Positions 1,536-52,854 of a stretch of 64,000 nucleotides of DNA are shown one piece after another. Below the pieces are notes generated by a model that saw nothing but the letters and a program-made list of their open reading frames with translations, did no database searches and had not been told where the DNA came from. Position 1 is the stretch's first letter. Each line of letters opens with the position of its first letter. Position numbers and translations under genes: made by a program. The stretch is from an uncultured Eubacteriales bacterium. GTDB lineage: Bacteria > Acidobacteriota > Aminicenantia > Aminicenantales > Aminicenantaceae. The DNA is taken from the NCBI GenBank assembly GCA_964440805.1, contig CAYTTR010000007.1, forward strand, positions 9,795-73,794, in the 5' to 3' direction.

Positions 1536-2759
1536 TTACCAGCTCTTTCCCCGTTCATCCTGGAATTTAGAGATGTCGGTTAAAAGGCTTTTTTGCTGCA
1601 TCAGTTCCAGGTGGGTTTTTATAAAGCAGATATTTTTAAGAGAAGAACAATGGTGAATGGTATAACCGGGAGTATGACCGATAGCCAGCACTCCCAGGCC
1701 CGCCAGAACCACCATTTTATAGCGGGCGGCTTTGGCCACTATGGTTTCAGCTTTTTCTGTGGGAGAGACAATGGGCACAGCCGGATAAAAATAGCTTCCT
1801 TCTGCATCCACCGGTATAATCCGGTTATTTCCTTGGGAAAACAGTTTGAGCGCTTGAACCATAGCCCAGGGTGAGTGGGAAAATAGAGCGGATTTGGCGC
1901 TGGAGAAACGGTAAACAGCCTGATGGAGTTTCGTGAAAAAATCTTTTCTTTTTTCCTCAAGCCCAATTCTGAGGATATCCAAAGTTAATCCGTCCGGAGT
2001 TGAGAGACCCGGTGAATAAATCATCTCTCCGCCGTCTCTTACGCTGAGAGAACCGGTGTGAAAAGGGGAGAGTTCCAGTAAAAATACATCCGAGGCTGTC
2101 CGGCAGAACTGGCGGATAAGCTTGCGGTCTTCTGTTGCCTGCTTGTTTTCCGGAGGAGAATAGTCTGGAAGCAACGGGTAAGAGATGTTATTGATTTCCC
2201 GGAATCCAGCATCAAGGAGATTTAAGTAAAGAAGAATTTTAGCTGAGTAATCGAGAAGGCAAAGGAAAAAGAAGGCTTCTTCCAAAGAAGAGCCTCGGAC
2301 AAAAGGACCGTGGGATTTTACCATCATCGACGCCCGGATCTGTAAAATTTCAGGAATTTCTTTTTCCATCTCTGGGGAACCAACCGGATATTTGAATTCA
2401 ACGACCGGAATGTTTTGCAAAAATTTCCGGCCGAGACAATCAACAGGAATTATCTTATCGGTAATAAAGGAAAGAAGAATGGCCGGTAGGGAATGAGCGT
2501 GGATAGCGGAATGGGCGTAGCGGAGGATTTTCTGATGGGTACCGGTTTCAGAGGAGGCCTGGAAAAGGCCTGTCTTTGGCTCATCCAGCCCCACCAGAAC
2601 TATATCCCTGTCGTTTAAATGGCCTTTCATAGAGCCTGTTTTGGTTATTAATATATCCTCTCCCACCCTAAGGGATATGTTTCCGCTGTGGGTATTCTGG
2701 AGGCCGAGAGACAGCATGGCCCGGCCGATATCCCTGATTTTTTTTTTGAATTCTTCCAT
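1536..2759 (-). CDS. Tandem class II aldolase/adducin-domain protein (two fused fuculose-phosphate-aldolase-like domains)
   Basis: The N-terminal half has the GNISLR...HAHS pattern of the class II aldolase/adducin N-terminal domain. The second half repeats it (GSLSVRDGG...FSHSP). It is 407 aa, about twice a normal aldolase_II domain, and lies immediately downstream of AOR-1 on the same strand. Confidence 0.6.
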   Translation of the reverse strand: MEEFKKKIRDIGRAMLSLGLQNTHSGNISLRVGEDILITKTGSMKGHLNDRDIVLVGLDEPKTGLFQASSETGTHQKILRYAHSAIHAHSLPAILLSFITDKIIPVDCLGRKFLQNIPVVEFKYPVGSPEMEKEIPEILQIRASMMVKSHGPFVRGSSLEEAFFFLCLLDYSAKILLYLNLLDAGFREINNISYPLLPDYSPPENKQATEDRKLIRQFCRTASDVFLLELSPFHTGSLSVRDGGEMIYSPGLSTPDGLTLDILRIGLEEKRKDFFTKLHQAVYRFSSAKSALFSHSPWAMVQALKLFSQGNNRIIPVDAEGSYFYPAVPIVSPTEKAETIVAKAARYKMVVLAGLGVLAIGHTPGYTIHHCSSLKNICFIKTHLELMQQKSLLTDISKFQDERGKSW

Positions 2760-2776: not shown

Positions 2777-4552
2777 TCAGGTTTCAGAGCTCCAGTCACG
2801 GATTTCATAGTATTTCCGGAGCATATGATTGAATTGAGTTTCTTTATCAATAGCCCGATTTTCTCCTGAAATCATTATTTTTTCAGTGAAAAACCGGTCA
2901 GGTAAAGTATCCTCTCTGGTAGAAATCCCTGCCTTGATATTGAAGAAGCGCTCCTTTTCAATTATTCCTTTGGCTTTCTTTTTAAGCTCATGTGGACTTA
3001 GGTCGATTCCGGTGAATCCGGAGTAAATCCGGGAAAGTTCATTTTCGCTAAACGAAAAAAAGGCAAAACGGCAAATTCCCAGCATATCTGCTACACAGCC
3101 TGAATCCTGCTCATCCACTACGTGGTCGGCTACCGTATCCACCAGGAACCTGTCCACTTCCCTTGCTCCTCCAAAGAATCCAAGGGAAATCATATATCCT
3201 CCCTTGAGGTGGCAGCCCCCTCTGGTTGAAGTGGCGTAGCCAAGGGCCTGCATTAAGGTTGAGCGGGGATCATAAGCGGGAAGCTCTAAGCCTTTGACTA
3301 CCATGGCCAGCTCATCAGCACCGAATTTTCGCCCCAGCCTCAGAGCTCCGTCGGCCAGAAAATCGCCTAATCCTTCTCTCAAGCAGGTCAGGCGGGCAAG
3401 CTTTGGCAAATTTTGCAGCTTTCCAAAGGAAAGCCGAAGGCCGTTTGTTTTATTTTGTGTAATTATACCCTTATCGAAAAGTTCCATGGCCAAACCCAGG
3501 GTGTTGCCGAAGGAAATAGTGTCCAGTCCGTAATCATTGCAAACATAGTTGGCCAAGGCTATTTCTTGCAAGTTGTAGTTATCAAGATTGGCCCCCATCA
3601 TGGCCAGCGTTTCAAATTCAGGTCCTTCTCCTTTTTTTTCTCCTGTCCTGGTAATTCTGGTACAGCGAATACGGCAGTTGAAGCAGCCTCCGGGAACAGC
3701 TCCAAGGTTTTTTCTTAAAGATTCTCCCGATATTTTTTCGATGTCCTCTTGTTTGTGCCGGACATCCTGAAAATTGCGGTGAACCAGCATATCGTGCTGG
3801 TAAACAAGCTTGAGCAAGCCGGCAGTTCCCAGCAGAGGGAAAGCTTTGGCTGTAACCGGCAGGGAACGAAGAAGTTTGTTTGCTTGAAAGAGTCCGGTTT
3901 TATATGTTTTTTGATTAACCGGCCGGAATGTTTTAGTTCCTTCAACTACCACTGCTTTTAAATTTTTGGAGCCCATAACTGCTCCGCCGCCTCCCCGGCC
4001 GCAGGTGCGGCTGTAATCATTCATGATCGATGAAATTAAGGCTTTTTTCTCTCCGGCCGGTCCAATTCCCAGAACCCGGCCCCGGGGATATTTTTTCAAG
4101 AGCTTTCCGGTTATCTCAGAAACAGTGTAACCCCATAGCTCCGGGCATTCAATGATATTTGTTTCCTTCTCGGAAATATAAAGATAGACGGGAACAGCCG
4201 CTTTCCCTTTGACAATAAGCATATCGTATCCGGTCCGTTTAAAAGTGTTTCCCCAAAAACCTCCTGAGTTTGAACTGCATATGGTTCCGCTTAGGGGGGA
4301 TTTAAAAGTAACGGAGAATCGGCCTGATGTCGGAGCTGCACTTCCTACCAGTCCCCCCGGAGCGAATACCAGCAAGGATTCTTCTCCCAGTGGGGTGGTA
4401 GAAGGAGATAGATTATGGTTGAGGCAGATTACTCCCAACCCTCTTCCTCCGAGCCCATCGGTTATGAGATTTTGAGACAGGGGATGGCGATTAACTCTGC
4501 CTGAGGATAAATCAACTTCAAGAAAACAATTGTTGTACCCATTAACCGCCAT
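2777..4552 (-). CDS. aor: Aldehyde:ferredoxin oxidoreductase, tungsten-containing AOR family (AOR-1)
   Basis: 591 aa. The N-terminal domain (MAVNGYNNCFLEVDLSSGRV...) and the rest of the sequence resemble the AOR family, including a conserved Cys-rich region and EFETLAMMGANL / GLD motifs. Confidence 0.85.
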   Translation of the reverse strand: MAVNGYNNCFLEVDLSSGRVNRHPLSQNLITDGLGGRGLGVICLNHNLSPSTTPLGEESLLVFAPGGLVGSAAPTSGRFSVTFKSPLSGTICSSNSGGFWGNTFKRTGYDMLIVKGKAAVPVYLYISEKETNIIECPELWGYTVSEITGKLLKKYPRGRVLGIGPAGEKKALISSIMNDYSRTCGRGGGGAVMGSKNLKAVVVEGTKTFRPVNQKTYKTGLFQANKLLRSLPVTAKAFPLLGTAGLLKLVYQHDMLVHRNFQDVRHKQEDIEKISGESLRKNLGAVPGGCFNCRIRCTRITRTGEKKGEGPEFETLAMMGANLDNYNLQEIALANYVCNDYGLDTISFGNTLGLAMELFDKGIITQNKTNGLRLSFGKLQNLPKLARLTCLREGLGDFLADGALRLGRKFGADELAMVVKGLELPAYDPRSTLMQALGYATSTRGGCHLKGGYMISLGFFGGAREVDRFLVDTVADHVVDEQDSGCVADMLGICRFAFFSFSENELSRIYSGFTGIDLSPHELKKKAKGIIEKERFFNIKAGISTREDTLPDRFFTEKIMISGENRAIDKETQFNHMLRKYYEIRDWSSET

Positions 4553-5358: not shown

Positions 5359-5521
5359 TTAACCTGAACTATTCATAAAAAAGGCCGATTTTAAATAAGA
5401 TTCAATGGAAGAATCAAATGAACTTAATTTCTTTACGTACGCCATGATAAAACCTCTTAACTCATAGATAGTATTTGTGATATAAAAAGTATCGGCCTTT
5501 TTTATGAATAATCCAGGTTAA
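5359..5521. mobile_element. MITE-like non-autonomous element, copy a (short form, about 155 bp) with TTAA flanks
   Basis: Terminal inverted repeat TTAACCTGAACTATTCATAAAAAAGGCCGAT (5359-5389) pairs with ATCGGCCTTTTTTATGAATAATCCAGGTTAA (5491-5521). The same termini recur at 23105, 43065 and 60843. The right TTAA also supplies the stop codon of the adjacent minus-strand kinase gene. Confidence 0.7.
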
Positions 5522-6942
5522 GTGTTGAGAGAAGGGATATTTATATTAAAGGCTGTTCCTTGACGGCGGTCCACCTTCAGACTTCCTTTCAATTGTTTGA
5601 CCAAGTCATTAACTATTTGGAATCCCAGTGATTGTGGTTGGTTAAGGTCTACTTTTTTTGGGAGGCCGATTCCTGAATCTTTGACCTGCAATTGATAGTT
5701 CCCTGCTTTATCCTGAAAAAATTTTATCTTAATTTCTCCCTCTTTCTTTCCAGGGAAAGCATACTTAAGGGCATTGGAAACAAGCTCACTCACCAGAAGC
5801 CCCAATGGAATGGCCCGGCTGAGGTCAAGCTCTATATCTTTTGTCTCGATGGCCATTTGAACCCGTTTCTGGTCGACCGGGTAGGCTTCCAAAAGGCGTC
5901 TGGTCAGGTTTCTTAGGTAAGAGCAAAAATTAACCGTACTGCAGGGAGGCAGGTGGTCTAATTCCTGATGTGAGCTGAGGGTTTTGATAAGCATTTCTCT
6001 TTGTTCTTGAGGATTTAACGATTGTTCTTTTTCCTCCAGGCATTGGGACTGGAGCCGGAGAAGCTTGTAAACGAGGTTCAGGTTCTGGTTAACAGTGTAT
6101 TTGTATTCTTCCATGTCTTTGTGTTTCTCCTTGAGAGCTTCTTCCAGTAAGGCCATTGACATTTTGCGGTCACTTATATCCTTAGCCAAAATTATGAATG
6201 AAAATTTTTCCTTTGTCTCCCAGGGAGTCAAGCATATCTCAATCGGAATTTCACTCCGGTCTTTTTTGCGGCCGATTGCTTCCACCCATTTGCCGGCGAT
6301 TTTTGAGCGGGTAAAAAGAAGGAGACGTTGAATTTCGGCCAGAAACCTTGGGTCTGGATGCTCGGCCAGCAGAATAGAGAACGGTCTTCCCGTTACTTCA
6401 TGCCGGGAATAGCCGAAAAGATTCTCGGCTCCTTGGTTCCAAAAGTAAATAACTCCGCTTCTTCTGGCCAGAATAACTGCTTCATTCATGTTTTCAGCCA
6501 GCTCCTGCCAGGTCCGGCTCGATTCTTTCATCAAATCATAGACTTCCTTGTTGTAAAGAGCGATCTGAAGGGTTGCTTTTATTTCATTGTCTTGGAAAGG
6601 TTTGATAATGTAACCGAAAGGTTCCACTTTCTTGGCTCTTTTTATCAAAGCATCATCACCATAGGCGGTAAGGAAAATGACCGGAATATCCATTTCATTT
6701 TTCAGAATGGAAGCAGCTTCAATTCCATCCAGTTCACCGGGCATTACAATATCCATAATAACCAAGTCAGGCTTAAAAAGACGGGCTTTAGCCACTGCTT
6801 CTTCTCCGGATGAAGCCCTTCCCACAACTTTATATCCCATGTGAGTTAGCCTGACTTCTAAGTGAGTGGTGATGGCAGCTTCATCATCCACTACCAGGAT
6901 TTTTTTCATCCTGAACCTCCTCGCTTGCAATTTTAAATTCAA
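5518..6942 (-). CDS. Hybrid response-regulator receiver + PAS + HisKA_2-type histidine kinase (likely true start at MKKILVVDDE, coordinate 6909)
   Basis: Receiver motifs (ILVVDDE, KPDLVIMD, FLTAYGDD...KPF), a PAS region (AVILARRSGVIYFWNQGAENLFGY) and a C-terminal HATPase_c region (ELVSNALKYAF, DSGIGLP). It overlaps the next kinase gene by 26-59 nt. Confidence 0.75.
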   Translation of the reverse strand: MNLKLQARRFRMKKILVVDDEAAITTHLEVRLTHMGYKVVGRASSGEEAVAKARLFKPDLVIMDIVMPGELDGIEAASILKNEMDIPVIFLTAYGDDALIKRAKKVEPFGYIIKPFQDNEIKATLQIALYNKEVYDLMKESSRTWQELAENMNEAVILARRSGVIYFWNQGAENLFGYSRHEVTGRPFSILLAEHPDPRFLAEIQRLLLFTRSKIAGKWVEAIGRKKDRSEIPIEICLTPWETKEKFSFIILAKDISDRKMSMALLEEALKEKHKDMEEYKYTVNQNLNLVYKLLRLQSQCLEEKEQSLNPQEQREMLIKTLSSHQELDHLPPCSTVNFCSYLRNLTRRLLEAYPVDQKRVQMAIETKDIELDLSRAIPLGLLVSELVSNALKYAFPGKKEGEIKIKFFQDKAGNYQLQVKDSGIGLPKKVDLNQPQSLGFQIVNDLVKQLKGSLKVDRRQGTAFNINIPSLNT

Positions 6943-8092
6943 TTAAAATAGAAGTCCCTTCATGCTGGGTGACATAAAACTTTCCCTTGAGCTGGTCTTC
7001 GACCAAATTTTTCATCAGTTTAAGTCCCAGGGTCCTGGTACTGTCAATGTCCAAGCTCTGAGGAATACCGCATCCGTCATCCTTGATGCGGAGAAAGACC
7101 AGCTCTTTTTCTGCTTTTTTTAGGGCGATTTCAAGTGTTCCTTCCTGGCCTTTCTGGAATGCGTGTTTGTAGACATTGGAAATGGCTTCACTGAGAATAA
7201 TAGCCAGAGGAAGGGCCTGATTTATATTGAGAAAAACCTTGGAATAATCGAGAACCGGGGTTATGAATCTCATTTTGTCGGAATAAACCTGGAAAAGATA
7301 ACTAACCAGATCCTTTATGTAACCTCCCATCTCGATTTGACTGAACCTTCCGCTCTGATAGAGGTGTTCGTGAATCAGGGCCATGGTGTGGATTTCGGCC
7401 CGGGCATCCTGACAAAGCTGCTTAACCTCCTGATAGGAAGGTTGGAGAGCCTTCATGTCAAGCAGGCCAGAAATTATCTGAAGATTGTTTTTGACCCGGT
7501 GATGAACTTCTCTTAGAAGGATTTCCTTTTCTTTCAAGGAGGACTTGAGCTCATCTTCGATTTTTTTCCTCTTGGTTATATCCCGGCAGGTAGAGATGAT
7601 TTGTTTAGGCCGGCTTTTGGCATCTTTAATCAAGGCGGAATTAATTTCCCCAGCAAATCTGGTTCCATCCTTCCGGAGGAAAGAATATTCTTCGTTTTTA
7701 AGAATCCCTCTCCTGAGGATTTTGAGCAGGTTTCTATTGGCCCGTGACCTGTCTTCTGGAGCAATCAGCTCAAAAGCAGATTTTCCAATAAGAGCTTCAG
7801 GTTCTTCATATCCGTGGAGTTTAAGTGTTTCTTCAGAGACATCGGTGATTATCCCTTTTAAGTCGGTAACGGTTACTGCTTCTGGGGAAGCCAAGACTAG
7901 TTTTCTGTATTTTTCTTCACTTTCCTTGAGGGCTTCATCTGCTAACTGGTGCCGGACTCTCCATTTTTCCAAATCATGGATTTTGGCCCTTAATCTCTCG
8001 TTTTCCTGGGTAATTTCTTTCATGGTAGGGAAAGAATTATTCTTTAAAGAGAAAAATGGATGATTAACCTTCTTTTCTTTCGGGAACTTCAA
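6884..8092 (-). CDS. PAS-domain sensor histidine kinase, HisKA_2 family (HRVKNNLQ H-box)
   Basis: Coiled-coil N-terminus, PAS (LVLASPEAVTVTDLKGIITDV...), the H-box EVHHRVKNNLQIISGLL typical of HisKA_2/HWE-type kinases, and HATPase_c (ILSEAISNVYKHAF, DDGCGIP). Confidence 0.75.
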   Translation of the reverse strand: MKFPKEKKVNHPFFSLKNNSFPTMKEITQENERLRAKIHDLEKWRVRHQLADEALKESEEKYRKLVLASPEAVTVTDLKGIITDVSEETLKLHGYEEPEALIGKSAFELIAPEDRSRANRNLLKILRRGILKNEEYSFLRKDGTRFAGEINSALIKDAKSRPKQIISTCRDITKRKKIEDELKSSLKEKEILLREVHHRVKNNLQIISGLLDMKALQPSYQEVKQLCQDARAEIHTMALIHEHLYQSGRFSQIEMGGYIKDLVSYLFQVYSDKMRFITPVLDYSKVFLNINQALPLAIILSEAISNVYKHAFQKGQEGTLEIALKKAEKELVFLRIKDDGCGIPQSLDIDSTRTLGLKLMKNLVEDQLKGKFYVTQHEGTSILIEFKIASEEVQDEKNPGSG

Positions 8093-8560
8093 TTGTTAGT
8101 CTCCCTGCTAACCCTTAATTTCCCCGCTTATAAAGTATAGTCATGTTTATTACTGTGTCAACACTCCTTCTATCTGAGGGGCAATTTTTTCTATTTTTTT
8201 TCTAAAAAATTATCTGTCAGATAAATAAATAATGAATAATTACATTTCCAGGGGGGATTTTTTTAAAATTTTTTTAATAAATTGACAAAAAAAACTTGAC
8301 TTCCTATATTTTATAGGGTTATAAAAAATTGGAACTATGGATAATAAATTATCTGGGGAAATAATTTTAAGTATTTAATGTACTTTTTCGGCTGAAATTG
8401 AAGGAAAGGAGGTAGCCTCCTTCGTGAGAGCCGGAAGAAATTTTAGTCAATCGAAGCCTGAAGATTTATTACCTCCTCTATACCCATCCTTAAAACAACC
8501 GCCATCCTGCCTGGATCAGGATCATATTTTCCATTCTTTAAAGATTACAAGTTTCAAAGC

Positions 8561-8751: not shown

Positions 8752-10701
8752 ATGAGAAGACGCATCGGTGTCTTTATTTGCCACTGTGGAATAAACATTG
8801 CCGGGACAGTGGATGTCAAAAAGGTGGCTCAAGAAATGTCTACTTATCCTGATGTCGTTCATGCTGAGGATTATGTTTATATGTGTTCAGATCCTGGGCA
8901 GAACCTTATCGTAGATACAATTCAGGAAAAAAAGCTGGATGGAGTGGTAGTGGCCTGCTGTTCTCACAATCTTCATGAATCCACTTTCCGCAATGCTACC
9001 AAATCAGCCGGAATAAATGCTTTTCAGTGTGAAATTGCCAACATAAGAGAGCAGTGCAGTTGGGTTCATAAAAACATGGATGAAGCTACTGCGAAATCTT
9101 TAAAAATAACCAGAAGCATTACTGAAAAAGTCCGCTGGAACGAGCCTCTTAAACCCATTTCTGTCCCTGTAACCCGGAAAGCTCTGGTTATTGGAGGAGG
9201 TATCGCCGGGATACAGGCTTCGCTGGATCTGGCTAACAGTGGTCTTGATGTAATCCTGGTGGAGAAATCACCTTCCATTGGCGGACGCATGATACAGCTT
9301 TCAGAAACCTTTCCCACCCTTGATTGTTCCCAGTGCATTCTGACTCCCAAAATGGTGGAAGTATCCAAACATCCCCAAATTAAACTAATGACTTACAGCG
9401 AAGTTCGAGAAGTCTCAGGGTATGTAGGTAATTTCCAAGTGAAAATATTGAAAAAACCAACCTATGTGGATCCGGAAAAATGTACTCTTTGTGATGAATG
9501 TACCAAGATCTGTCCTGTAGTTGTCCCCAATGAATTTGATCTCGGTCTTACCGGCCGACGGGGCATTTATATTCCCTTTCCTCAGGCCATTCCGGCAACT
9601 TATACCTTAGATGTGGAAGCCTGTCCCGGACTTCTTCCCATTGCCTGTGGAAAATGTGATGAAGTCTGTGAGCCAAAGGCTATTGATTTTGACATGAAAC
9701 CGCAGATCATCGAAGAAAATGTGGGGGCAATTGTGGTGGCCACTGGTTACGACCTCTATGGGAAAGAAAATATGGCAGAGTACGGTTACGGCAGGTATGC
9801 CGATGTTCTGGACGGACTGCAGTTTGAAAGATTGTGTTCAGCCAGCGGGCCAACCAGAGGAAAGATCCTCCGGCCCTCAGACCATAAAGAGCCGAAGGAA
9901 GTGGTTTTTATCCAGTGTGCTGGTTCCCGCGACCCAGAGCTCCATTGTGCCTACTGCTCCAAGATCTGCTGTATGTACACAGCCAAACATGCCAAGCTCT
10001 ACAAGCACCATGTCCATGACGGCCAAGCTTATGTCTTTTATATCGACATCCGTTCCGGCGGGAAAGGTTATGAAGAGTTCGTCAGTAAGACCATGGAAGA
10101 TGACGGGGTAATCTATCTCCGGGGAAAAGTCTCTAAGATATTCGAAGAAGATGGCAAGATCAAAGTCTGGGGAGTGGATACTCTTTCTGGAAAAAGTGTA
10201 GAAATTGCAGCTGATATGGTGGTTTTAGCCATGGCCATGAAGCCTTCGGCTGGAACCGAAGCTCTGGCCAAGATGTTAAAAATTTCCCAAGGCGAGGATG
10301 GATTTCTTTCCGAGTCTCATCCCAAGCTTAAGCCGGTGGAAAGTGCCACCTCGGGAATCTTTCTGGCGGGAGCCATCCAGGCTCCGAAAGATATTCCGGA
10401 GGCAGTGGCCCAGGCCGGAGGGGCGGCCATCAAAGTTGTCTCTATTCTCTTCCAGGAAGAACTGCTCCATTCGCCTCTTGTAGCCAGGGTGATATCTCCT
10501 CTCTGCACCGGTTGCGGGATGTGCGTTGAGGTTTGTCCCTATTCGGCCATAAGCCTGGATAACGGTGTCGCCCAGGTCAATGAAGTCCTTTGCGAAGGTT
10601 GCGGCACCTGTGCCGCTACATGTCTGAGAGCAGCAGTAGAAGTCCGGAATCTGACCCATCTCCAAATTCACGACATGTTGAATGCCTGTTTGGGAGGATG
10701 A
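8752..10701 (+). CDS. hdrA: Heterodisulfide reductase subunit A-like FAD/FeS flavoprotein (HdrA)
   Basis: Start MRRRIGVFICHCGINIAG is the classic HdrA N-terminus and is preceded by AAGGAGGG. There is a FAD-binding GGGIAG motif, several Cys clusters and a C-terminal 2x[4Fe-4S] ferredoxin region (CTGCGMCVEVCP, CEGCGTCAATC). The ORF-track start 8689 is upstream of the likely start. Confidence 0.85.
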   Translation: MRRRIGVFICHCGINIAGTVDVKKVAQEMSTYPDVVHAEDYVYMCSDPGQNLIVDTIQEKKLDGVVVACCSHNLHESTFRNATKSAGINAFQCEIANIREQCSWVHKNMDEATAKSLKITRSITEKVRWNEPLKPISVPVTRKALVIGGGIAGIQASLDLANSGLDVILVEKSPSIGGRMIQLSETFPTLDCSQCILTPKMVEVSKHPQIKLMTYSEVREVSGYVGNFQVKILKKPTYVDPEKCTLCDECTKICPVVVPNEFDLGLTGRRGIYIPFPQAIPATYTLDVEACPGLLPIACGKCDEVCEPKAIDFDMKPQIIEENVGAIVVATGYDLYGKENMAEYGYGRYADVLDGLQFERLCSASGPTRGKILRPSDHKEPKEVVFIQCAGSRDPELHCAYCSKICCMYTAKHAKLYKHHVHDGQAYVFYIDIRSGGKGYEEFVSKTMEDDGVIYLRGKVSKIFEEDGKIKVWGVDTLSGKSVEIAADMVVLAMAMKPSAGTEALAKMLKISQGEDGFLSESHPKLKPVESATSGIFLAGAIQAPKDIPEAVAQAGGAAIKVVSILFQEELLHSPLVARVISPLCTGCGMCVEVCPYSAISLDNGVAQVNEVLCEGCGTCAATCLRAAVEVRNLTHLQIHDMLNACLGG

Positions 10702-10702
10702 C

Positions 10703-11125
10703 ATGGAAAATCAATTTAATCCGAAGATTGTGGCTTTTCTTTGTAAATGGTGCTCTTCGGCAGGAAGCGACATGGCTGGTGTTTCCCGGATGGAATACCC
10801 GGCCAATGTTATTCCGGTCATGGTTATGTGCTCAGGCAGCGTCTCACCTTTGTATATACTTTCCGCCTTTAATTTAGGGGCTGACGGAGTGCTTGTTTCC
10901 GGTTGCCACCCGGGAGATTGTCATTATATTAAAGGAAATATGTATGCCCGCCGGAGAATGGCTGTCCTCAAGGAATTATTGCAATTCATCGGGCTTGAGC
11001 CGCAAAGGTTCCAGATGTCCTGGGTCTCGGCTGCCGAGGGATTGAAATACACTCAGATCATCAAGGATTTTGTAGAAGTTCTAAAGCCTTTGGGCCCACA
11101 ACAGCAGTTAAGAAGGAGTCTCTGA
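10703..11125 (+). CDS. mvhD: MvhD / FlxD-like methyl-viologen-reducing hydrogenase delta subunit homologue
   Basis: IVAFLCKWCSSAGSDMAG...VMCSG...GADGVLVSGCHPGDCHY matches the MvhD family (CxxC...C, GADGV, GCHxGDCH). The start is 2 nt after the hdrA stop. Confidence 0.8.
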   Translation: MENQFNPKIVAFLCKWCSSAGSDMAGVSRMEYPANVIPVMVMCSGSVSPLYILSAFNLGADGVLVSGCHPGDCHYIKGNMYARRRMAVLKELLQFIGLEPQRFQMSWVSAAEGLKYTQIIKDFVEVLKPLGPQQQLRRSL

Positions 11126-12162
11126 TGGTGGAGTTGGAAAAATTAAAGGATAAAGCAAGGGAGCTTCTGGAGAAAGAGAAAATCAGATTCCTTATCGGCT
11201 ATACCGAGGGAGCTGAGGGAAAAGGAGCAGTACCTGCCCGTTTCAGAAAACCGAAAGAAGTGGAAAAACTTATCTGGAATCCCGAATGCAGACACAACTT
11301 AGTTCTTTTCCTGGTTGAAGAGAAAAAGAAGGAGATTGAATCAAAAGAGGAAAAGAAAGAAAAAAAGCCTATAGGTTTATTGGTCAAGGGTTGTGACAGC
11401 CGGATTGTGAATGTTCTTCTCCAGGAAAAATTCATATCCAGGGAAGAGGTTTTTCTTCTGGGAGTTTCCTGTGAACAAGGAGGAATTATAGACCGGAAAA
11501 AAGCTTCATTGAAATTAAATGGAAAAAAAGTTGATAAGTGGGAGTTTGAAGAAGATGGTTCCGTGCTTGCCCATATCGGAGGTAAAAAAAATAAGATCCA
11601 AAGGGAGGATATTCTCTCTGACAACTGTTTAGTCTGCCGGTACAGTTATCCGGTTATTTATGATGTTATGTTCGGGGAGAAAAAAGAGAGGGAGGCAAGG
11701 AATTATTTTAACAGTGTGGAAGAGATAGAGAATATGTCTCGTGAGAAAAGACGGCTCTTCTGGAAGGAACAGATGGAAAAATGCATTCGTTGTTATGCCT
11801 GCCGCTCGGTTTGTCCTCTTTGCTACTGTCCTGAATGCGTGGTTGATCCCATTAGTTTCAAAATAACCCCGGAAACAACAGCCGAGGAAAAAGCCAAGAG
11901 GATAAAATGGATTGAAAAATCTCCCTTAATTTCTGAAAACTTAGTCTATCATTTAGTTAGAGCCATCCATCATGCCGGCCGCTGTTCTGATTGTGGCCAG
12001 TGCGAAATGTCTTGTCCTCAAAATATTCCTGTCCGCCTGCTGAACAAAAAGATTGAGAAGACAGCCCTAGAGATGTTCGAATATGTGGCCGGATTGGATC
12101 CAGAAAAATCCTCTCTTTTTTCCAGCTTCAGGGAAAACGACCCTGAGGATTTTATCAGGTGA
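11125..12162 (+). CDS. Iron-sulfur subunit with C-terminal 2x[4Fe-4S] ferredoxin domain (FlxC/FrhB-like electron-transfer subunit); exact family uncertain
   Basis: Two CxxCxxCxxxCP motifs (CIRCYACRSVCP, CSDCGQCEMSCP). The start codon overlaps the mvhD stop (ATGA). The N-terminal half has no motif I recognise. Confidence 0.55.
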   Translation: MVELEKLKDKARELLEKEKIRFLIGYTEGAEGKGAVPARFRKPKEVEKLIWNPECRHNLVLFLVEEKKKEIESKEEKKEKKPIGLLVKGCDSRIVNVLLQEKFISREEVFLLGVSCEQGGIIDRKKASLKLNGKKVDKWEFEEDGSVLAHIGGKKNKIQREDILSDNCLVCRYSYPVIYDVMFGEKKEREARNYFNSVEEIENMSREKRRLFWKEQMEKCIRCYACRSVCPLCYCPECVVDPISFKITPETTAEEKAKRIKWIEKSPLISENLVYHLVRAIHHAGRCSDCGQCEMSCPQNIPVRLLNKKIEKTALEMFEYVAGLDPEKSSLFSSFRENDPEDFIR

Positions 12163-12166
12163 AACC

Positions 12167-13207
12167 ATGGATAAAATAATTTTAAAAAAATCTATTCCAC
12201 GTTGGATTAAACAACTGGCTTCTTTCAGGATTTTCAGTCCTGTGGCCAAGGATGGTCTCTGGGAATATGAAGAAATCAAACAACTCGATGATTTTCCTAA
12301 GGAATATACCAATACCGTAGTCCCTCTGAAAAAATTTTTGTTTCCCCACCGTGAAGAACTGTTTGAGTTTGCCGACCCTCAAAACGGCGGTCCTGAAATC
12401 AAAGAAATTCTTCCTGAAGCAAAACCGATGGTTGTATTTGGGGTAAGACCTTGTGATGCCCGGGCTGCTCACCTGCTTTCCAAAGTATTCGGCGGAGATA
12501 TTCCGGATGTCTACTTCCAGAAGCACCAAGATCTGGTTTATCTGGTTGGACTGGCTTGTTCCTCTCCTCCTTCAGATTCATGCTTTTGTATTTCTGTGGA
12601 AGGCTCGCCTTTTTCAGAAGAGGGACTGGATATTCTTCTTATTGATTTGGGAGAGAAATATTTGGTTAGAATTTTAAGCGAGAAAGGCAAAAATCTGATT
12701 AAAGCCAATGGAGATCTTTTTGAAACGGCCTTGAAAAAAGATCAGGAAAGGGCTCAAGAACTTGAAAAAGAAGCCGAAAAAAAGATTTCAACAAAAGTAA
12801 AATCTGTAGACAAAATTCCCCCTAAGCTCAAGGATATGTTTGACTCTCCTTTATGGGAAGAAGAATCATTCAGATGTCTTAAATGCGGAATTTGTACTTA
12901 TCTCTGCCCGACCTGTCATTGTTTTGATATTTCTGATGAGCTTGTATCTACTTTTCCTTTAAGAGGAAAAAGGGTCAGAGTCTGGGATAACTGTCAGTTT
13001 CCGGATTTTACCATGCATTCCTCGGGACATAATCCCCGGCCGGATAAATCTTCACGGCTGAGGCAAAGGATATTTCATAAGTTTTATTATTTTGTGGAAA
13101 ATCAAAAGGATTACCTTTGTACTGGCTGCGGCAGGTGTGTGGCTAAATGTCCTGTGGGAATAGATATAGTTGAAATTTTAAATAAGGTGGAAAGCCATGG
13201 AAAATAA
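12167..13207 (+). CDS. AsrA / sulfhydrogenase-beta-like Fe-S protein (anaerobic sulfite reductase subunit A family)
   Basis: Start MDKIILKK at 12167 is just after the upstream stop. Cys motifs CLKCGICTYLCPTCHCFD and CTGCGRCVAKCPVGIDI, about 347 aa, directly followed by an AsrB-like partner, as in asrAB / hydBG pairs. Confidence 0.6.
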   Translation: MDKIILKKSIPRWIKQLASFRIFSPVAKDGLWEYEEIKQLDDFPKEYTNTVVPLKKFLFPHREELFEFADPQNGGPEIKEILPEAKPMVVFGVRPCDARAAHLLSKVFGGDIPDVYFQKHQDLVYLVGLACSSPPSDSCFCISVEGSPFSEEGLDILLIDLGEKYLVRILSEKGKNLIKANGDLFETALKKDQERAQELEKEAEKKISTKVKSVDKIPPKLKDMFDSPLWEEESFRCLKCGICTYLCPTCHCFDISDELVSTFPLRGKRVRVWDNCQFPDFTMHSSGHNPRPDKSSRLRQRIFHKFYYFVENQKDYLCTGCGRCVAKCPVGIDIVEILNKVESHGK

Positions 13208-14021
13208 TCCTTATATCCCTCGGGTTGCCAAAATAATACAGATAAAAGAAGAGGTGGGGGGGATCCGTCCGGTCAAGACCTTTCGCCTGCAGTTTTTGGA
13301 GGAAAATCATTTCTCATTCAAATGCGGCCAATGTGCCATGCTCTCTGTTTTTGGAAAAGGAGAATCCATGATTTCAATTTCATCTTCTCAGTTGGAGAAG
13401 GAATATTTGCAATTCAGTATCTTGAAGATGGGAAGAGTAACTACTGCCCTTCATGATATGAAGGAAGGGGATAAGCTGGGTATACGGGGGCCTTATGGAA
13501 ATGGGTTCCCTGTTGAGGAGTGGAAAGGGAAAAATCTTCTTTTTATCGGCGGAGGTATAGGCTTGGCTCCTATCTGGTCGGTCTTGCAAACAGTATTGAA
13601 GAAAAAGAAGGATTACGGCCGTTTGATTCTTTTTTATGGGGCAAGAAGCTCGGGAGATCTTGTTTTCAAGGATGAGCTGGAAAAGCTGAGGGATGAGATG
13701 AAAGTCTATCTTTCAGTTGATGTGGAAGAGCCGGAATGGAAGGAATACGTCGGATTTGTTCCTCAGAATGTCCTGGAGAAAAAGCCTTCTCCTGAAAATA
13801 CCATTGCTGTAACCTGCGGGCCTCCTATCATGATTAAATTCGTTATAAAAAATTTAAAAGAACTTGGCTTTAAGGACCGGCAGATTTATACCACCGTGGA
13901 GAATAAGATGAAGTGCGGCATTGGGAAGTGTGGCCGCTGCAATATTGGACCTGTTTACATCTGTCAGGATGGACCTGTTTTTTCTTGGGATAAATTAAAG
14001 GAGCTTCCCCAGGAATATTAA
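13197..14021 (+). CDS. AsrB / PyrK-like FAD-NAD(P)H-binding oxidoreductase subunit with C-terminal [2Fe-2S] (sulfhydrogenase gamma / NfnA-like)
   Basis: GPYGNGF, LLFIGGGIGLAP and CGPPIM motifs of the ferredoxin-NADP reductase fold, plus a terminal CGIGKCGRCNIGPVYICQDGPVF cluster typical of PyrK/AsrB/NfnA. Overlaps the upstream gene by 11 nt. Confidence 0.75.
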   Translation: MENNPYIPRVAKIIQIKEEVGGIRPVKTFRLQFLEENHFSFKCGQCAMLSVFGKGESMISISSSQLEKEYLQFSILKMGRVTTALHDMKEGDKLGIRGPYGNGFPVEEWKGKNLLFIGGGIGLAPIWSVLQTVLKKKKDYGRLILFYGARSSGDLVFKDELEKLRDEMKVYLSVDVEEPEWKEYVGFVPQNVLEKKPSPENTIAVTCGPPIMIKFVIKNLKELGFKDRQIYTTVENKMKCGIGKCGRCNIGPVYICQDGPVFSWDKLKELPQEY

Positions 14022-14076
14022 GCAGCAAGACTCAATGGTTTTGGCTGTGTAATAAAAACGAAAGAAAGGAGGGAAC

Positions 14077-14550
14077 ATGGTTCCGATCGAGGTTTTAAGA
14101 AGGTTTGACATATTCAGCGGGCTTTCCGACCCTGAATTGGAAAACATAAGTGAAATTGCTAAACTGGAAAAATACCGTCCCAATGCCCGGGTTTTCGAGG
14201 AGGATTCGCTGGCCGTGAAAATGTATCTGGTTCTTTATGGAAGAGTAGAAATCAGGCTGAGGAAGAGCCCCGAGAAGGATCCCTTGACAATCGATATTGT
14301 CGGCCCCGGTGAGATTTTTGGCTGGTCAGCAGTAACCAATCCTTACACCTTCACTGCTGCTGCCTGGACGGTGGAAGAATCTGAACTGGTAGCTATTGAT
14401 GGAGGAGTTCTTCTCAAGCTTTTCAAAATCAACAACCACCTCGGTTACAAGGTTATGACAAGAATTGCCGGGGTTATATCAAAGAGATTCCGCCAGTTAA
14501 GCCAGAAACTTGTGGACAATGCCTCTTTGGAGAAAGAAGTCCGGATGTAG
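14077..14550 (+). CDS. Stand-alone cyclic-nucleotide-binding (CAP effector) domain protein, no HTH
   Basis: FSGLSDPELENI...ARVFEEDS...MYLVLYGRVEI...GEIFGWSAV is the cNMP-binding beta-roll signature. At 157 aa there is no room for a DNA-binding domain. Confidence 0.65.
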   Translation: MVPIEVLRRFDIFSGLSDPELENISEIAKLEKYRPNARVFEEDSLAVKMYLVLYGRVEIRLRKSPEKDPLTIDIVGPGEIFGWSAVTNPYTFTAAAWTVEESELVAIDGGVLLKLFKINNHLGYKVMTRIAGVISKRFRQLSQKLVDNASLEKEVRM

Positions 14551-14591
14551 AACAATATCCGGGAGAATAAGGCTCAGGTTGTTTTCAGTCT

Positions 14592-16538
14592 TCAAAGAAG
14601 CTCTTCCGCCACCTTGCCGTTTTTCGACCAGCCTTGTTTTCGGTAGTAAAGATCGAGGATTTTGTGGTGCAGGTCCTTACGGACTGTTTTTCCCCGATGC
14701 GGACCGGAGGTAAGAGGAACAGTCAGCTTTTGGGGAATGAAAGCGTCATAAGAGCGGTCTCTTCCTTGAATGTTGTTTAAATGCCTTTCCAGAGTATAAA
14801 TTCTTCGGCCGCACTGGTTTAGAGTCTCCGGGGAATTTTCAAATCCGGTAAGAGTTTGGAAGAGAGATAGAAAAAGATCTGATGTAATATCGGCGCAGAA
14901 AAAATCACAAAGGCCGAGGGAATCAATGAGAGCTTTACTGTGCTGGGATTCAACCACATAAGCACTCAGGGCCTCTGCTTCTTTCAATCCTCCTTCTTCT
15001 GCCTGGATTGTCCAGGCATAGGTGTGGTCACCTCTTCCCCGGTTGGAGGTAGCATAGGCAGTGAACATGCCCGGAAAAACCTTAGGTTCGATACCGGCAT
15101 AACCCAGGCCGCCGAAGGTAGTGGTGGCGCAAAAAGCTATCTCATCTATACAAGAGCTCGGTATTTCAGAGGACAGTTTTTCAATAACCAAATCAGTGTG
15201 GTCAGCAAAAAGATTTCCCAATGGTTCTCTTCTGTAGGCAAGATCTTTTATAAAATCTATCATTCGTGGAGCATTACCGAATGTTAGAGAACTATCCCAT
15301 TTATCCAAGAACCCTTTTTCGGTCAACTCCATAACTGCAGCAGTTATACTGCCGAAGGTCATGGTGTCGATACCGAGCTCATTGGCCAGTTTATTCATGT
15401 GAAAGATAGCCTCTTTGTTTAAAATACAGCAATTTATCCAGAGAGCAATGGTTTCGAATTCGGGGCGAACTCCAGTTCCTGAATAGAGTGGTTTTGTCAC
15501 CTGGGCTTCTCTGGAACAAAAAATATGACGGCACCTGTTGCAGACATTGTGTTTTCCGGCCATCTCCAGGAAAGAGCCGGTAGAAACACCGGCATAATCC
15601 CTGGGAGAAAAATATCCTTCATCAAAGTTATGCCAGGGAAGGTACCCTCCTTTACTACCCAGGTAATTTCCGTTGAAAGCCCTATCCAGCCACCATGTTG
15701 TCCCGGTTTCCGGGCGAAAAGAGACTGTTTTCTGAGGATCAGCTACTGTGGATTTGACCAGTTCATCAAGTTGCCGGCTTAATTTTTGGAATGATTGAGT
15801 ATCAGCATAGCCTACTTTTTCTCTGCCGGAGGCTGTAACAGCTACCAGGTTTTTAGAGCCAAAGACAGCCCCGGCTCCGCCTCTTCCAAAATTCCGGTGA
15901 TAATCGGCGGTAAGACAGGCAAATTCTACCTGGTTCCAGCCCGCCGGTCCCGGGCAGACAGTGGAGGAGCCTGGATGCTTGCGGGAGAGAAAACCAATCA
16001 CTTCTGAGGTTCTGCGAAGAATCTTTTTTCCTTCTATTTCCTCAAATAGCTCATCTTCGGCCTTGATAATATGAGCCTTTCCATTCTCGAGGAGAAGGCG
16101 GACTGGTTGAGACGCCCGGTCATCGATTATGACCTGATCGAAGCCAGCCCTTTTTAGCCTGTTAGGAAATTGGCCTCCGCAGCTTGAATGAGTGATTAGC
16201 CCATAGAGAATTTTATGTTCCGGAACCCAGGAACAGGGTTTAAGAGACCGGGTCATGGGGCTGATGAAGGAACAAGATCCTCTTCCGGCGGTGGGGATAA
16301 AGGTATCATTGGGAGCTGATGTACCCAGAATTATCCGATTTTCCGGGCCAAGCGGATCCCGGACCGGACCATTGTTTTTGAGTTTCAGAAAGAGCAAATA
16401 TGCCTGAACCCCGCGGCCGCCGATATATTTTCTATATACTTCCGGGTCAGGGAGGCTGGTGGTGATTTTATTCTCCGAAAGGTCGATCCAGGCCCATTTG
16501 CCTGTGTAGCCATAAAAACCAGAAGTTTTTTGCTTCAT
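14592..16538 (-). CDS. aor: Aldehyde:ferredoxin oxidoreductase, tungsten-containing AOR family (AOR-2)
   Basis: 648 aa; N-terminus MKQKTSGFYGYTGKWAWIDLSENKITT...YIGGRGVQAYLL and the overall pattern of the AOR family; distinct paralogue of AOR-1. Confidence 0.85.
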   Translation of the reverse strand: MKQKTSGFYGYTGKWAWIDLSENKITTSLPDPEVYRKYIGGRGVQAYLLFLKLKNNGPVRDPLGPENRIILGTSAPNDTFIPTAGRGSCSFISPMTRSLKPCSWVPEHKILYGLITHSSCGGQFPNRLKRAGFDQVIIDDRASQPVRLLLENGKAHIIKAEDELFEEIEGKKILRRTSEVIGFLSRKHPGSSTVCPGPAGWNQVEFACLTADYHRNFGRGGAGAVFGSKNLVAVTASGREKVGYADTQSFQKLSRQLDELVKSTVADPQKTVSFRPETGTTWWLDRAFNGNYLGSKGGYLPWHNFDEGYFSPRDYAGVSTGSFLEMAGKHNVCNRCRHIFCSREAQVTKPLYSGTGVRPEFETIALWINCCILNKEAIFHMNKLANELGIDTMTFGSITAAVMELTEKGFLDKWDSSLTFGNAPRMIDFIKDLAYRREPLGNLFADHTDLVIEKLSSEIPSSCIDEIAFCATTTFGGLGYAGIEPKVFPGMFTAYATSNRGRGDHTYAWTIQAEEGGLKEAEALSAYVVESQHSKALIDSLGLCDFFCADITSDLFLSLFQTLTGFENSPETLNQCGRRIYTLERHLNNIQGRDRSYDAFIPQKLTVPLTSGPHRGKTVRKDLHHKILDLYYRKQGWSKNGKVAEELL

Positions 16539-49658: not shown

Positions 49659-49967
49659 ATGTTTGTCTGGATATTTCACAGGATTTCGGGGCTGCTTTTA
49701 ATTGTTCTCCTGACCATTAAATTCTTGACTTCATTTTTCTTAATGACTAAGGGACAAAAACCTGACTGGGCTCTTGTCCTTCATACCAATCCTCTTTCCG
49801 ATACCCTGCTTATCATAAGTGGTGTTTTCCATGCCTTTTATGGTCTGAGAACAATCATCCTTGATATGGGAATTCGTAGGGAAAAAACTTTATTCTGGAT
49901 TTTCACTTTCCTGGCCGGGCTGGCAAGTGTTCTGTTGCTTTTGCTCTACTTCACCCGGGATTATTGA
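49659..49967 (+). CDS. sdhC: Succinate dehydrogenase/fumarate reductase small membrane anchor (cytochrome b-like, 3 TM, conserved His)
   Basis: 102 aa with three hydrophobic helices and His residues (FHRISG, HTNPL, FHAFYG), immediately upstream of sdhA. Typical position and size for an Sdh membrane subunit. Confidence 0.55.
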   Translation: MFVWIFHRISGLLLIVLLTIKFLTSFFLMTKGQKPDWALVLHTNPLSDTLLIISGVFHAFYGLRTIILDMGIRREKTLFWIFTFLAGLASVLLLLLYFTRDY

Positions 49968-49968
49968 G

Positions 49969-51666: not shown

Positions 51667-52397
51667 TGATTTTTAGGTTTCATGTGTTCAGGTACAATCC
51701 GAAGAGGGACCGGCATCCTCGCTTTCAGATTTTTAATCATGAGGCCAGACTGGAAGATTCGGTCCTGGAAGCATTGATGTCTATCCGGGACCATCAGGAC
51801 TCATCCCTTTCCCTGCGCTATAGCTGCCGAGCTGCAGTTTGCGGCTCTTGCGGAATGGTAATCAACGGCCGGATTACTCTGGCCTGCCGGACAACTCTCG
51901 AATCCTTGAAAACAAATGAGATCACCGTGGAACCTCTCCCGAATCTTGAAGTCCAGAAAGATTTGATGGTAGATATGGAGCCATTCTGGGAAGCCTTGAA
52001 ATATGTTGAGCCATATCTTTTTTCCAGAAAAAAAAGACCGGAAAAAGGATACCGGATAGAGGAAGAAGAGATGGAGAAGATCTATCAGTTCATAAACTGT
52101 ATTATGTGCGGTTGTTGTTATAGTTCCTGTCCAGTGGTTACCCGGGATGATAGGTACATAGGTCCTGCCTCCTTAGCTAAATTGTTTCGCTTTATCAGGG
52201 ATACCCGGGATATCCGGCCTTTTTCCCGATGGTCAAAAATAGACCGTCCTGAAGGCGTTTGGAGCTGTGACACTGTGTTCCGTTGTAATGAGGTCTGCCC
52301 AAAGGAAGTTAGGCCGGCCGATGGAATTCAGGCTCTGCGAAGAAAATTGATAACTGAAAAAATAAAAGAATTATTCAGGAAAAGTAATGAAGATTAA
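51666..52397 (+). CDS. sdhB: Succinate dehydrogenase / fumarate reductase iron-sulfur subunit
   Basis: [2Fe-2S] motif SCRAAVCGSCGMVINGR, [4Fe-4S] CIMCGCCYSSCP and [3Fe-4S] CNEVCPKEV. The start overlaps the sdhA stop. Confidence 0.9.
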   Translation: MIFRFHVFRYNPKRDRHPRFQIFNHEARLEDSVLEALMSIRDHQDSSLSLRYSCRAAVCGSCGMVINGRITLACRTTLESLKTNEITVEPLPNLEVQKDLMVDMEPFWEALKYVEPYLFSRKKRPEKGYRIEEEEMEKIYQFINCIMCGCCYSSCPVVTRDDRYIGPASLAKLFRFIRDTRDIRPFSRWSKIDRPEGVWSCDTVFRCNEVCPKEVRPADGIQALRRKLITEKIKELFRKSNED

Positions 52398-52854
52398 ACA
52401 TTCTCTTTTCACCAGACGGCGTTTTTTGAACAGCTTGATTGGTGGCTGGGCGGCTGCCTTAGCGGCATCTTTTCTTCAACCGTTGCTGAAATTCGTTTTT
52501 CCTCCTTATAAGGAGCCAGATGAAGTTAGTTTGCCTTTAGCTGATTACCAGCTTCTCGAACCTAATTCATTTAAGAACTTTGCCTGGGGAAGCAAACCGG
52601 GAATTCTTCGCCGGAAGGAGGATGGAACATTTTCAGCCTTTGTAGGAGTCTGCACACATCTGGATTGCAATGTTACCTATCTCCCAGAGCAAAGAAAGTT
52701 CTACTGTGCCTGCCATGATGGCTGGTATGATGAAAGCGGCAGAAATATTCAGGGTCCTCCTCCTAAGCCCCTCCGTACCTTGCAGGTGGTTATTGAAGAA
52801 GAATTTATTCTAATCAAAAAAGAAGCAGCCAAGGGAAGTTCAAGTGGCAATTAA
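52387..52854 (+). CDS. Rieske [2Fe-2S] protein with Tat signal (bc/b6f-complex type)
   Basis: Twin-arginine leader FTRRRFLNSLIGGWAAAL; Rieske boxes CTHLDCNV and CACHDGWY with correct spacing. Confidence 0.85.
   Translation: MKIKHSLFTRRRFLNSLIGGWAAALAASFLQPLLKFVFPPYKEPDEVSLPLADYQLLEPNSFKNFAWGSKPGILRRKEDGTFSAFVGVCTHLDCNVTYLPEQRKFYCACHDGWYDESGRNIQGPPPKPLRTLQVVIEEEFILIKKEAAKGSSSGN

Follow-up and report, generated by a model that had tools for sequence, protein, structure and literature searches.

An HdrBC-less Flx/Flox-HdrA module with a cNMP-fold companion gene in an Aminicenantes-type bacterium

A 64,000-nt stretch of contig CAYTTR010000007.1 (the whole stretch is referred to as the window) from an uncultured bacterium of the Acidobacteriota/Aminicenantes lineage carries a six-gene unit made up of hdrA, flxD, flxC, flxB, flxA and a small gene for a protein with a cyclic nucleotide monophosphate (cNMP) binding fold. 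We found that this unit is a conserved variant of the Flx/Flox-HdrA module which lacks HdrBC and has a cNMP-fold companion in Aminicenantes-type bacteria, and this is the mildly new part. In the reading we prefer, with a probability of roughly 0.6, HdrA and FlxDCBA form a soluble enzyme for reversible electron bifurcation between NAD(P)H, ferredoxin and a high-potential acceptor, while the gene for a CCG-type partner would lie at another site of the genome. The six genes are:

8752-10701, plus strand, hdrA, 649 amino acids (aa), NCBIfam HdrA2 with 818 bits
10703-11125, plus strand, flxD, MvhD-type [2Fe-2S] connector, 140 aa, Pfam FlpD with E=2.4e-50
11125-12162, plus strand, flxC, 345 aa, two CxxCxxCxxxCP motifs
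12167-13207, plus strand, flxB, iron-sulfur (FeS) protein of the sulfhydrogenase beta/AsrA-like type, 346 aa, Fer4_22 with E=7e-33
13197-14021, plus strand, flxA, input subunit for FAD, NAD(P)H and [2Fe-2S], 274 aa, domains NAD_binding_1, FAD_binding_6 and DHODB_Fe-S_bind
14077-14550, plus strand, cNMP-binding-fold gene, 157 aa, PF00027 only, without a helix-turn-helix domain

Going from hdrA to flxA, 1 nt separates the first two genes, flxD and flxC overlap in TGATG, 4 nt lie between flxC and flxB, and flxB and flxA overlap by 11 nt. A first-pass annotation made from the letters alone had proposed five coupled genes at these positions, encoding HdrA, MvhD, FeS, AsrA-like and AsrB-like subunits, and the gaps and overlaps, the Pfam and NCBIfam domains and the matches to chains of solved structures all agree with it; the sixth gene had been left out. 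HdrA matches the solved chains 8rvu_a and 5odc_A with ~700 bits and ~55% identity over its full length (residues 3-647), and the Cys motifs of the N-terminal part, the inserted ferredoxin, the CCMY region and the C-terminal ferredoxin all align to the solved structures. With FAD and six [4Fe-4S] motifs, HdrA is presumed to be the site of bifurcation. Its start at position 8752 is backed by a GGAGGG ribosome-binding site and by 649-aa gene calls in the related loci L085, L086 and L134. FlxD corresponds to positions 643-775 of the HdrA2 model, which form its C-terminal MvhD part.

FlxB reaches 198 bits against the beta subunit of Pyrococcus furiosus sulfhydrogenase I (9nez_B), while among the protein family models ShyB and HydB score ~205 bits and AsrA 144 bits, all under cut-off. 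FlxA, which carries the motifs GGGIGLAP and CGxGxCGxC, had been likened to NfnA. The FAD, NAD and [2Fe-2S] sites expected from that comparison are present, but the protein is much closer to the sulfhydrogenase I gamma subunit (9nez_C, 202 bits) than to NfnA (54-60 bits), and an identity as NfnAB was rejected, as there is also no GltD-like open reading frame (ORF) for NfnB in the window. That flxB and flxA belong to an anaerobic sulfite reductase or a sulfhydrogenase with its catalytic subunit elsewhere is extremely improbable. The AsrA, AsrB, ShyB, HydB and HydG models do all match with 144-254 bits, but the scores lie far below the curated cut-offs (AsrA 144 against 323 bits, AsrB 200 against 289 bits), and the two genes are fixed in the flxDCBA context beside MvhD and HdrA in hundreds of genomes. 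A Pfam scan of the ORFs in the 64-kb window furthermore revealed no genes for hydrogenase, HdrB or HdrC, as had been supposed at first pass, and none for AsrC, the sulfite reductase subunit that the first-pass annotation had named as evidence against its own proposal. For HdrB and HdrC the window likewise gave no tblastn match, no match to an iterated HdrB hidden Markov model and no match to the Pfam CCG domain.

No NCBIfam model exists for the 345-aa FlxC, which is nevertheless the best marker of the family, with 2472 homologue clusters at E≤1e-10. With residues 200-330 it matches the C-terminal end of FdhB from the Fdh-Hdr complex (7bkb_E, 65 bits), and it is a distant paralogue of FlxB with 21% identity (E=4e-7). 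The predicted structure is usable for residues 1-165 only; we drew nothing from the model of the C-terminal FeS domain because its predicted local distance difference test (pLDDT) score is below 50. For the N-terminal half only folds of the FrhB family were matched, namely FdhB of the Fdh-Hdr and Elp-Hdr complexes, FrhB, Fsr and HCAR. FlxC therefore looks like an FdhB/FrhB-fold N-terminal domain joined to a C-terminal 2x[4Fe-4S] domain, and would resemble the FdhB-type subunit which hands electrons to MvhD and HdrA in the methanogen complexes.

In comparison with the relative L085 the ratio of nonsynonymous to synonymous substitution rates (dN/dS) is 0.02-0.10 in hdrA, flxD, flxC, flxB and flxA, at a dS above 1 and near saturation. 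The five genes are under strong purifying selection. For the cNMP-fold gene we give the proportions of differing synonymous and nonsynonymous sites (pS 0.76, pN 0.04) and no dN/dS ratio, because synonymous sites are saturated. We take all six as working genes and not as chance ORFs. The idea that FlxB and FlxC evolve unusually fast only in the lineage of the window was rejected, as they are the fastest-evolving subunits in every lineage.

An HdrA-centred, NAD(P)H-fed bifurcating module is what the first-pass annotation had proposed, and the type is borne out, but it is the Flx/Flox-Hdr system already published. The hdrCBA-flxDCBA cluster was first described in Desulfovibrio vulgaris and later found to be widespread in anaerobes. 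The Flx subunits are described as homologues of the subunits of the Pyrococcus soluble hydrogenase without its catalytic hydrogenase subunit, joined to HdrABC (PMC10084766, PMC12125255, both citing Ramos 2015). The order hdrA-flxD-flxC-flxB-flxA in the window equals the published order (PMC12125255) and is collinear with the locus L084 of a Desulfovibrio metagenome-assembled genome (MAG). The window thus shares with D. vulgaris the same five proteins in the same order and the homology to sulfhydrogenase beta and gamma without a hydrogenase subunit: FlxA binds FAD and NAD(P), ends in a C-terminal [2Fe-2S] site and is a sulfhydrogenase gamma homologue, FlxB and FlxC are two FeS proteins related to sulfhydrogenase beta, FlxD is of MvhD type, and a full-length HdrA adjoins in the published gene order. 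In contrast to the D. vulgaris cluster, the 64-kb window contains neither HdrB with its CCG domains nor HdrC, the cNMP-fold gene follows as an extra downstream gene, no adh gene is adjacent, the host is of Acidobacteriota/Aminicenantes type, and DsrC or sulfate reduction is not evident in the window.

The methanogen complexes MvhADG-HdrABC, Fdh-Hdr and Elp-Hdr (5odc, 7bkb, 8rvu) share with the window the cluster and FAD motifs of HdrA, the MvhD connector and an FdhB-like protein corresponding to FlxC. They differ in the electron donor, which is a hydrogenase, a formate dehydrogenase or an F420H2 module there and an NAD(P)H flavoprotein here. In particular, the [NiFe] hydrogenase subunits MvhA and MvhG are absent (no hydrogenase domain was found in the ORFs scanned), HdrBC is missing from the window locus, and one would not expect a bacterium to contain CoM-S-S-CoB. 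HdrA2B2C2 of Methanosarcina acetivorans (PMC5296606) is related in that HdrA2 is the best NCBIfam match and FlxD matches its fused MvhD part; in the window, however, HdrA and MvhD are separate polypeptides, and the donor is NAD(P)H via Flx instead of F420H2.

Regarding the distribution of the system, we scanned for FlxC with one genome per species, which yielded at least 594 species genomes with confirmed relatives, and kept 80 loci. There the flxC gene almost always has an MvhD gene on one side and the genes for FlxB and FlxA on the other, and HdrA is encoded next to them. Using an iterated HdrB/CCG profile we found a CCG gene nearby in 29 of 37 well-flanked Flx loci and none near in the other 8, so the lack of a nearby CCG gene is a minority state among Flx loci and not unique to the window. 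Flox clusters with HdrD in place of HdrBC have been noted as well (PMC5947623).

The nearest clade to the window consists of Aminicenantes and alphaproteobacterial MAGs, whose HdrA and FlxA are 67-80% and 61-78% identical to those of the window. Their cluster is very stable and comprises hdrC, hdrB, a four-subunit 2-oxoacid:ferredoxin oxidoreductase (OFOR), hdrA, flxDCBA, an FeS protein and a FAD_binding_2 flavoprotein. We observed this layout, hdrC-hdrB-korDABC-hdrA-flxDCBA-tfrBA-like, in L004-L038 (e.g. L004 3343-15386), including MAGs of Rhodomicrobiaceae and Rhodospirillales, which suggests horizontal spread of a Flx-Hdr cluster associated with the reverse tricarboxylic acid (TCA) cycle into new phyla. 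The same type of layout is known from tubeworm symbionts and Chromatiaceae, where korABCD/tfrAB/flxABCD-hdrABC adjoins reverse-TCA genes (PMC6315080), and from the 'succinic acid operon' of Pseudoclostridium thermosuccinogenes, which is of the kor/tfr/flx/hdr type (PMC7282089). Whereas these clusters have the layout of the nearest sequence relatives, the window and its sub-clade are without hdrCB, OFOR and tfr-like genes at the locus, having either lost or never had them. What is left is the six-gene unit of hdrA-flxDCBA plus the cNMP-fold gene, with no hdrCB, kor or tfr at the locus, and we conclude that the window operon is a stripped derivative of the hdrC-hdrB-kor-hdrA-flxDCBA-tfrBA cluster. 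The stripped variant occurs in two sub-clades, one formed by the window, L085, L086 and L134 and the other by L001-3 and L006. As it is common to both at 80% identity of HdrA and 73% identity of the cNMP-fold protein between them, the stripped arrangement is old and has been maintained.

By analogy to the solved homologous complexes, NAD(P)H would deliver a hydride to the FAD of FlxA, from where single electrons would pass via the [2Fe-2S] cluster of FlxA, the [4Fe-4S] clusters of FlxB and FlxC and the [2Fe-2S] cluster of FlxD to the FAD of HdrA. There, as in the Mvh-, Fdh- and Elp-Hdr complexes and the Flx-Hdr model, the electron pair would be split, one electron going through the ferredoxin domains of HdrA to low-potential ferredoxin and the other to a high-potential acceptor. 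The high-potential branch would most likely end in a CCG-domain (HdrBC-like) partner encoded elsewhere. The reaction is expected to be reversible, so that ferredoxin reduced by aldehyde:ferredoxin oxidoreductases (AORs) or 2-oxoacid oxidoreductases could, together with a thiol, regenerate NAD(P)H.

A candidate for a partner in trans exists in one relative. The stripped module of L003 lies on contig 3 of a metagenome whose contig 1 is L123, and the tetranucleotide composition of the two is correlated with r=0.97. In L123 (1967-6467), and also in L097, hdrC-hdrB is followed by a gene for a truncated HdrA-like protein of 283 aa. This is a hint that hdrC-hdrB of L123 may be a natural trans complement of the stripped Flx module in L003. 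In both L123 and L097 the HdrA fragment is in turn followed by DRTGG, HATPase and HydS-like sensory [FeFe]-hydrogenase genes, adjoining a pair made up of an ABC-F gene and a relative of the window's second AOR gene, described below.

Several points weigh against a bifurcating enzyme with a CCG-type partner elsewhere. L003 and L123 are placed in one genome by composition and shared sample only, no HdrBC or other acceptor module was found for the window organism in the 64 kb of genome covered, and the FlxC model is poor in its C-terminal half, with a mean pLDDT of 60.7. Moreover, even for Flx-Hdr, bifurcation has been proposed on genetic and physiological grounds and not as an activity of a purified complex (PMC10084766).

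Alternatively, the six proteins could be a self-contained enzyme that works without HdrBC, using another high-potential acceptor or simply equilibrating NAD(P)H and ferredoxin, with the cNMP-fold protein as a regulatory or adaptor subunit. We regard this as possible but unlikely. It would agree with the age of the stripped arrangement and the purifying selection acting on it, with the roughly one fifth of well-flanked Flx loci that have no nearby CCG gene, and with the occurrence of cNMP-fold relatives directly beside hdrA in three cluster architectures. However, by the established thermodynamics of bifurcation NAD(P)H cannot substantially reduce ferredoxin without an exergonic branch, and to our knowledge every characterised HdrA enzyme works with HdrBC. 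The absence of hdrBC within 10-50 kb says nothing on the rest of the genome, and two members of the cNMP-fold family occur in non-Hdr contexts. The stronger version, in which hdrA-flxDCBA and the cNMP-fold gene are a self-sufficient HdrBC-free Hdr variant and the cNMP-fold protein serves HdrA-type complexes as a dedicated regulatory or adaptor subunit that senses a ligand, appears more doubtful still.

Irrespective of its role, the cNMP-fold gene is the most original element of the locus. It starts 55 nt after flxA with its own GGAGGG ribosome-binding site, and orthologues of 73-92% identity are located directly after flxA in L001-3, L006, L085 and L134. The protein lacks a DNA-binding domain and is one of a small family of 29 clusters, which come from Aminicenantes or Acidobacteriota wherever the source is named and show the invariant motif GEIFGWSAVTxPxTFTAAAWT. 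We take a Phe in this motif to stand at the place of the phosphate-binding Arg of cAMP and cGMP binders; replacement of this canonical residue would imply a different ligand, a point in favour of the self-contained enzyme. Outside the stripped variant, relatives are found directly beside hdrA in L132 (10001-10474, in an HdrABC/HdrL-type cluster) and L135 (8001-8459, in an HdrABC/NuoEF-like cluster). Because hdrA stands beside a cNMP-fold gene in three cluster architectures, the pattern suggests a protein that senses a ligand and acts on HdrA systems as a regulator or an accessory factor.

Upstream of hdrA the window holds a divergent control region and genes for candidate regulators:

8134-8438, no strand assigned, divergent control region between hdrA and a PAS kinase gene, with putative sigma-70-like promoters, a palindrome and a leader hairpin
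6884-8092, minus strand, PAS-HisKA_2 sensor kinase (Pfam), candidate regulator, divergent from hdrA
5518-6942, minus strand, receiver-PAS-HATPase hybrid sensor (Pfam), candidate regulator, kept in L134
4676-5026, plus strand, XRE regulator gene

Within 8134-8310 each strand has a sigma-70-like promoter match of 11/12, and between these near-consensus divergent promoters lies the perfect 7-1-7 palindrome TTATCTGTCAGATAA at 8210-8224. L086 and L134 both keep the palindrome, of which 0.34 would be expected by chance, at a divergence of dS above 1. A transcription factor probably binds there, and genes for an XRE regulator and response regulators are nearby. The hdrA leader of ~400 nt contains a hairpin at 8384-8438 (-22.9 kcal/mol, z=-2.1), which is nearly identical in L134 although coding dS is above 1. 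This hairpin has no Rfam match, and Rfam and tRNA scans of the window gave no matches. The PAS-HisKA_2 kinase gene is located at the same position in L086 and L134, and kinases of this type with 30% identity are also encoded upstream in L001-3. The hdrA-flx unit is probably under the control of the cNMP-fold protein and the divergent PAS kinases.

Two genes of the AOR family lie on either side of the unit, and a third gene belongs to their surroundings:

2777-4552, minus strand, AOR1, canonical AOR with AFOR_N and AFOR_C domains, considered to lie outside the unit
14592-16538, minus strand, AOR2, divergent member of the AOR family with AFOR_N and AFOR_C domains, considered to lie outside the unit
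1536-2759, minus strand, class II aldolase-like gene, 407 aa with a duplicated class II aldolase domain

According to the first-pass annotation the two AORs bracket the module and are wired to it. The assignment of both to the AOR family was right, whereas the wiring is not supported: both genes are on the opposite strand, a feature it had not mentioned, and in separate transcription units. AOR1, in which the Cys motif for the [4Fe-4S] cluster is CxxCxxxC, reaches 394 bits against 1aor and 411 bits against 9mqx_D, the WorL chain; AOR2, in which it is CxxCxxxxC, reaches 199 bits against 1aor and 61 bits against BamB (4z3w_A), the latter in the N-terminal domain only. AOR1 is located 4.2 kb upstream of hdrA, with the XRE gene and the two sensor kinase genes in between. 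The aldolase-like gene follows AOR1 downstream at a 17-nt gap, and the two probably form an operon. Judging from this pair, an aldehyde set free by the aldolase, e.g. from deoxy-sugar phosphates, may be oxidised by the AOR in one pathway. AOR2 is monocistronic and convergent with the cNMP-fold gene.

We consider it quite improbable that HdrA-Flx is a dedicated partner of the flanking AORs, in which the oxidation of aldehydes, or the reduction of acids, would be coupled directly to NAD(P)H and ferredoxin by bifurcation or confurcation. Both AORs do flank the module in the window and in L134 and L085, which have diverged at dS above 1. However, L134 is collinear with the window over 16 kb, including not only both AORs but also an unrelated ABC-F ATPase gene and an unrelated 370-aa gene, and AOR retention in L134 is therefore uninformative. 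In the sister sub-clade L001-3/L006 there is no AOR within 10 kb of the six-gene unit, none of 42 metagenome loci of AOR2 orthologues (55-67% identity) has the module within 10 kb, and these loci share no widely conserved neighbour, as even the commonest occurs in no more than 8 of the 42. The AOR2/ABC-F pair has a different location in L123 and L097. Conservation of AOR synteny in relatives, which the first-pass annotation had made a test of its proposal, is thus not observed.

More distant loci give some support for a connection of AORs with Flx. A canonical AOR is encoded no more than 10 kb from a large-HdrA/flx module in 6 of the 80 kept loci (Desulfobacterota, Dehalococcoidia). One of these is L076, where flxA is separated by just 13 nt from the start of a downstream AOR gene in the same orientation, effectively in one operon. 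In L073 (5585-8683) and L076 (6459-9527) flxDCBA follows a large HdrA/HdrL-type protein of ~1020-1030 aa, with the canonical AOR beside it. That these distant neighbourhoods are Bam clusters was rejected, the AORs of L073 and L076 being canonical with 565 and 382 bits to 1aor. In D. vulgaris, ethanol oxidation with Adh and Aor needs Flx-Hdr, whereby Adh makes NADH and Aor makes reduced ferredoxin (PMC10084766). From this requirement and the 6 loci it is plausible that the AORs share pools of ferredoxin and NAD(P)H with the HdrA-Flx module.

One bifurcating AOR is known, WorABCSL, an electron-bifurcating tungsten aldehyde oxidoreductase that uses NAD and ferredoxin and in which WorS physically couples the AOR to the bifurcating module (PMC12318220; PDB 9mqx). 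Its WorL is the chain matched by AOR1 with 411 bits, but it has BfuABC-type subunits in place of HdrA, and WorS and all other subunits are co-encoded, neither of which holds for AOR1 and AOR2. Beside both AOR genes we found no WorS-type polyferredoxin connector and no NuoE- or NuoF-like genes as BfuABC-type partners. The class II benzoyl-CoA reductase BamBCDEFGHI combines an AOR-family tungsten subunit with HdrA-like, MvhD-like and NAD(P)H modules. It differs from the locus in that there are no equivalents of BamC, BamD, BamG, BamH and BamI at the window and AOR2 is not co-transcribed with the module. Neither AOR is of BamB type: against 4z3w_A AOR1 scores 138 bits and AOR2 61 bits, far less than against AOR. 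That HdrA feeds AOR2 as a BamB-like reductase was rejected on these scores (61 against 199 bits) and on the lack of Bam partner genes. We conclude that the AORs are ordinary neighbours and not subunits or dedicated partners of HdrA-Flx.

In a further alternative the pathway of the sister clusters is kept, with reduced ferredoxin going to a 2-oxoacid:ferredoxin oxidoreductase, electrons going to a fumarate reductase and the partner genes located at 49.9-57.3 kb of the window. The kor- and tfr-like genes are interleaved with hdr and flx in the closest clade (PMC6315080, PMC7282089), and the window does hold sdhA-sdhB (49861-52397) and OFOR genes (54517-57264). However, the window SdhA is of the classical type (Succ_DH_flav_C), and the enzyme is membrane- and quinone-linked because its genes are in an operon with Rieske and cytochrome b genes. 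SdhA is 34% identical to the tfrA-like flavoprotein, the OFOR subunits 36-45% to their counterparts, and there is no CCG subunit in the window as a connector. With a classical Sdh operon and such low identities SdhAB and OFOR are unlikely as displaced tfr and kor partners, and we hold this alternative to be highly improbable, slightly more so than a dedicated AOR link.

Apart from this, three loci of the window were recorded for their own organisation. At 49861-53908 sdhA-sdhB-Rieske-cytochrome b form an apparent operon with complex III-like subunits in the usual place of the membrane anchor. At 54517-57264 OFOR alpha and beta genes form a pair, and the gamma subunit encoded behind them has a GNAT acetyltransferase domain fused to it at the N-terminus. 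The stretch 34616-42552 holds the usual periplasmic defence pair, an ordinary arrangement in which the gene for a bacterial alpha-2-macroglobulin (1890 aa) precedes that for a class A penicillin-binding protein.

Of the putative flavin-based bifurcating systems of anaerobes, Flx/Flox-HdrA modules belong to the most widespread, and their high-potential acceptor is known by inference only (DsrC in sulfate reducers). A conserved HdrBC-less variant in a lineage that does not reduce sulfate is a simple test case to distinguish partners acting in trans from a different acceptor. For annotation, the locus teaches that adjacent AORs should not be taken here as the sign of a new bifurcating enzyme coupled to aldehydes. 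The cNMP-fold gene that recurs beside hdrA, in turn, may mark an unrecognised layer of control.

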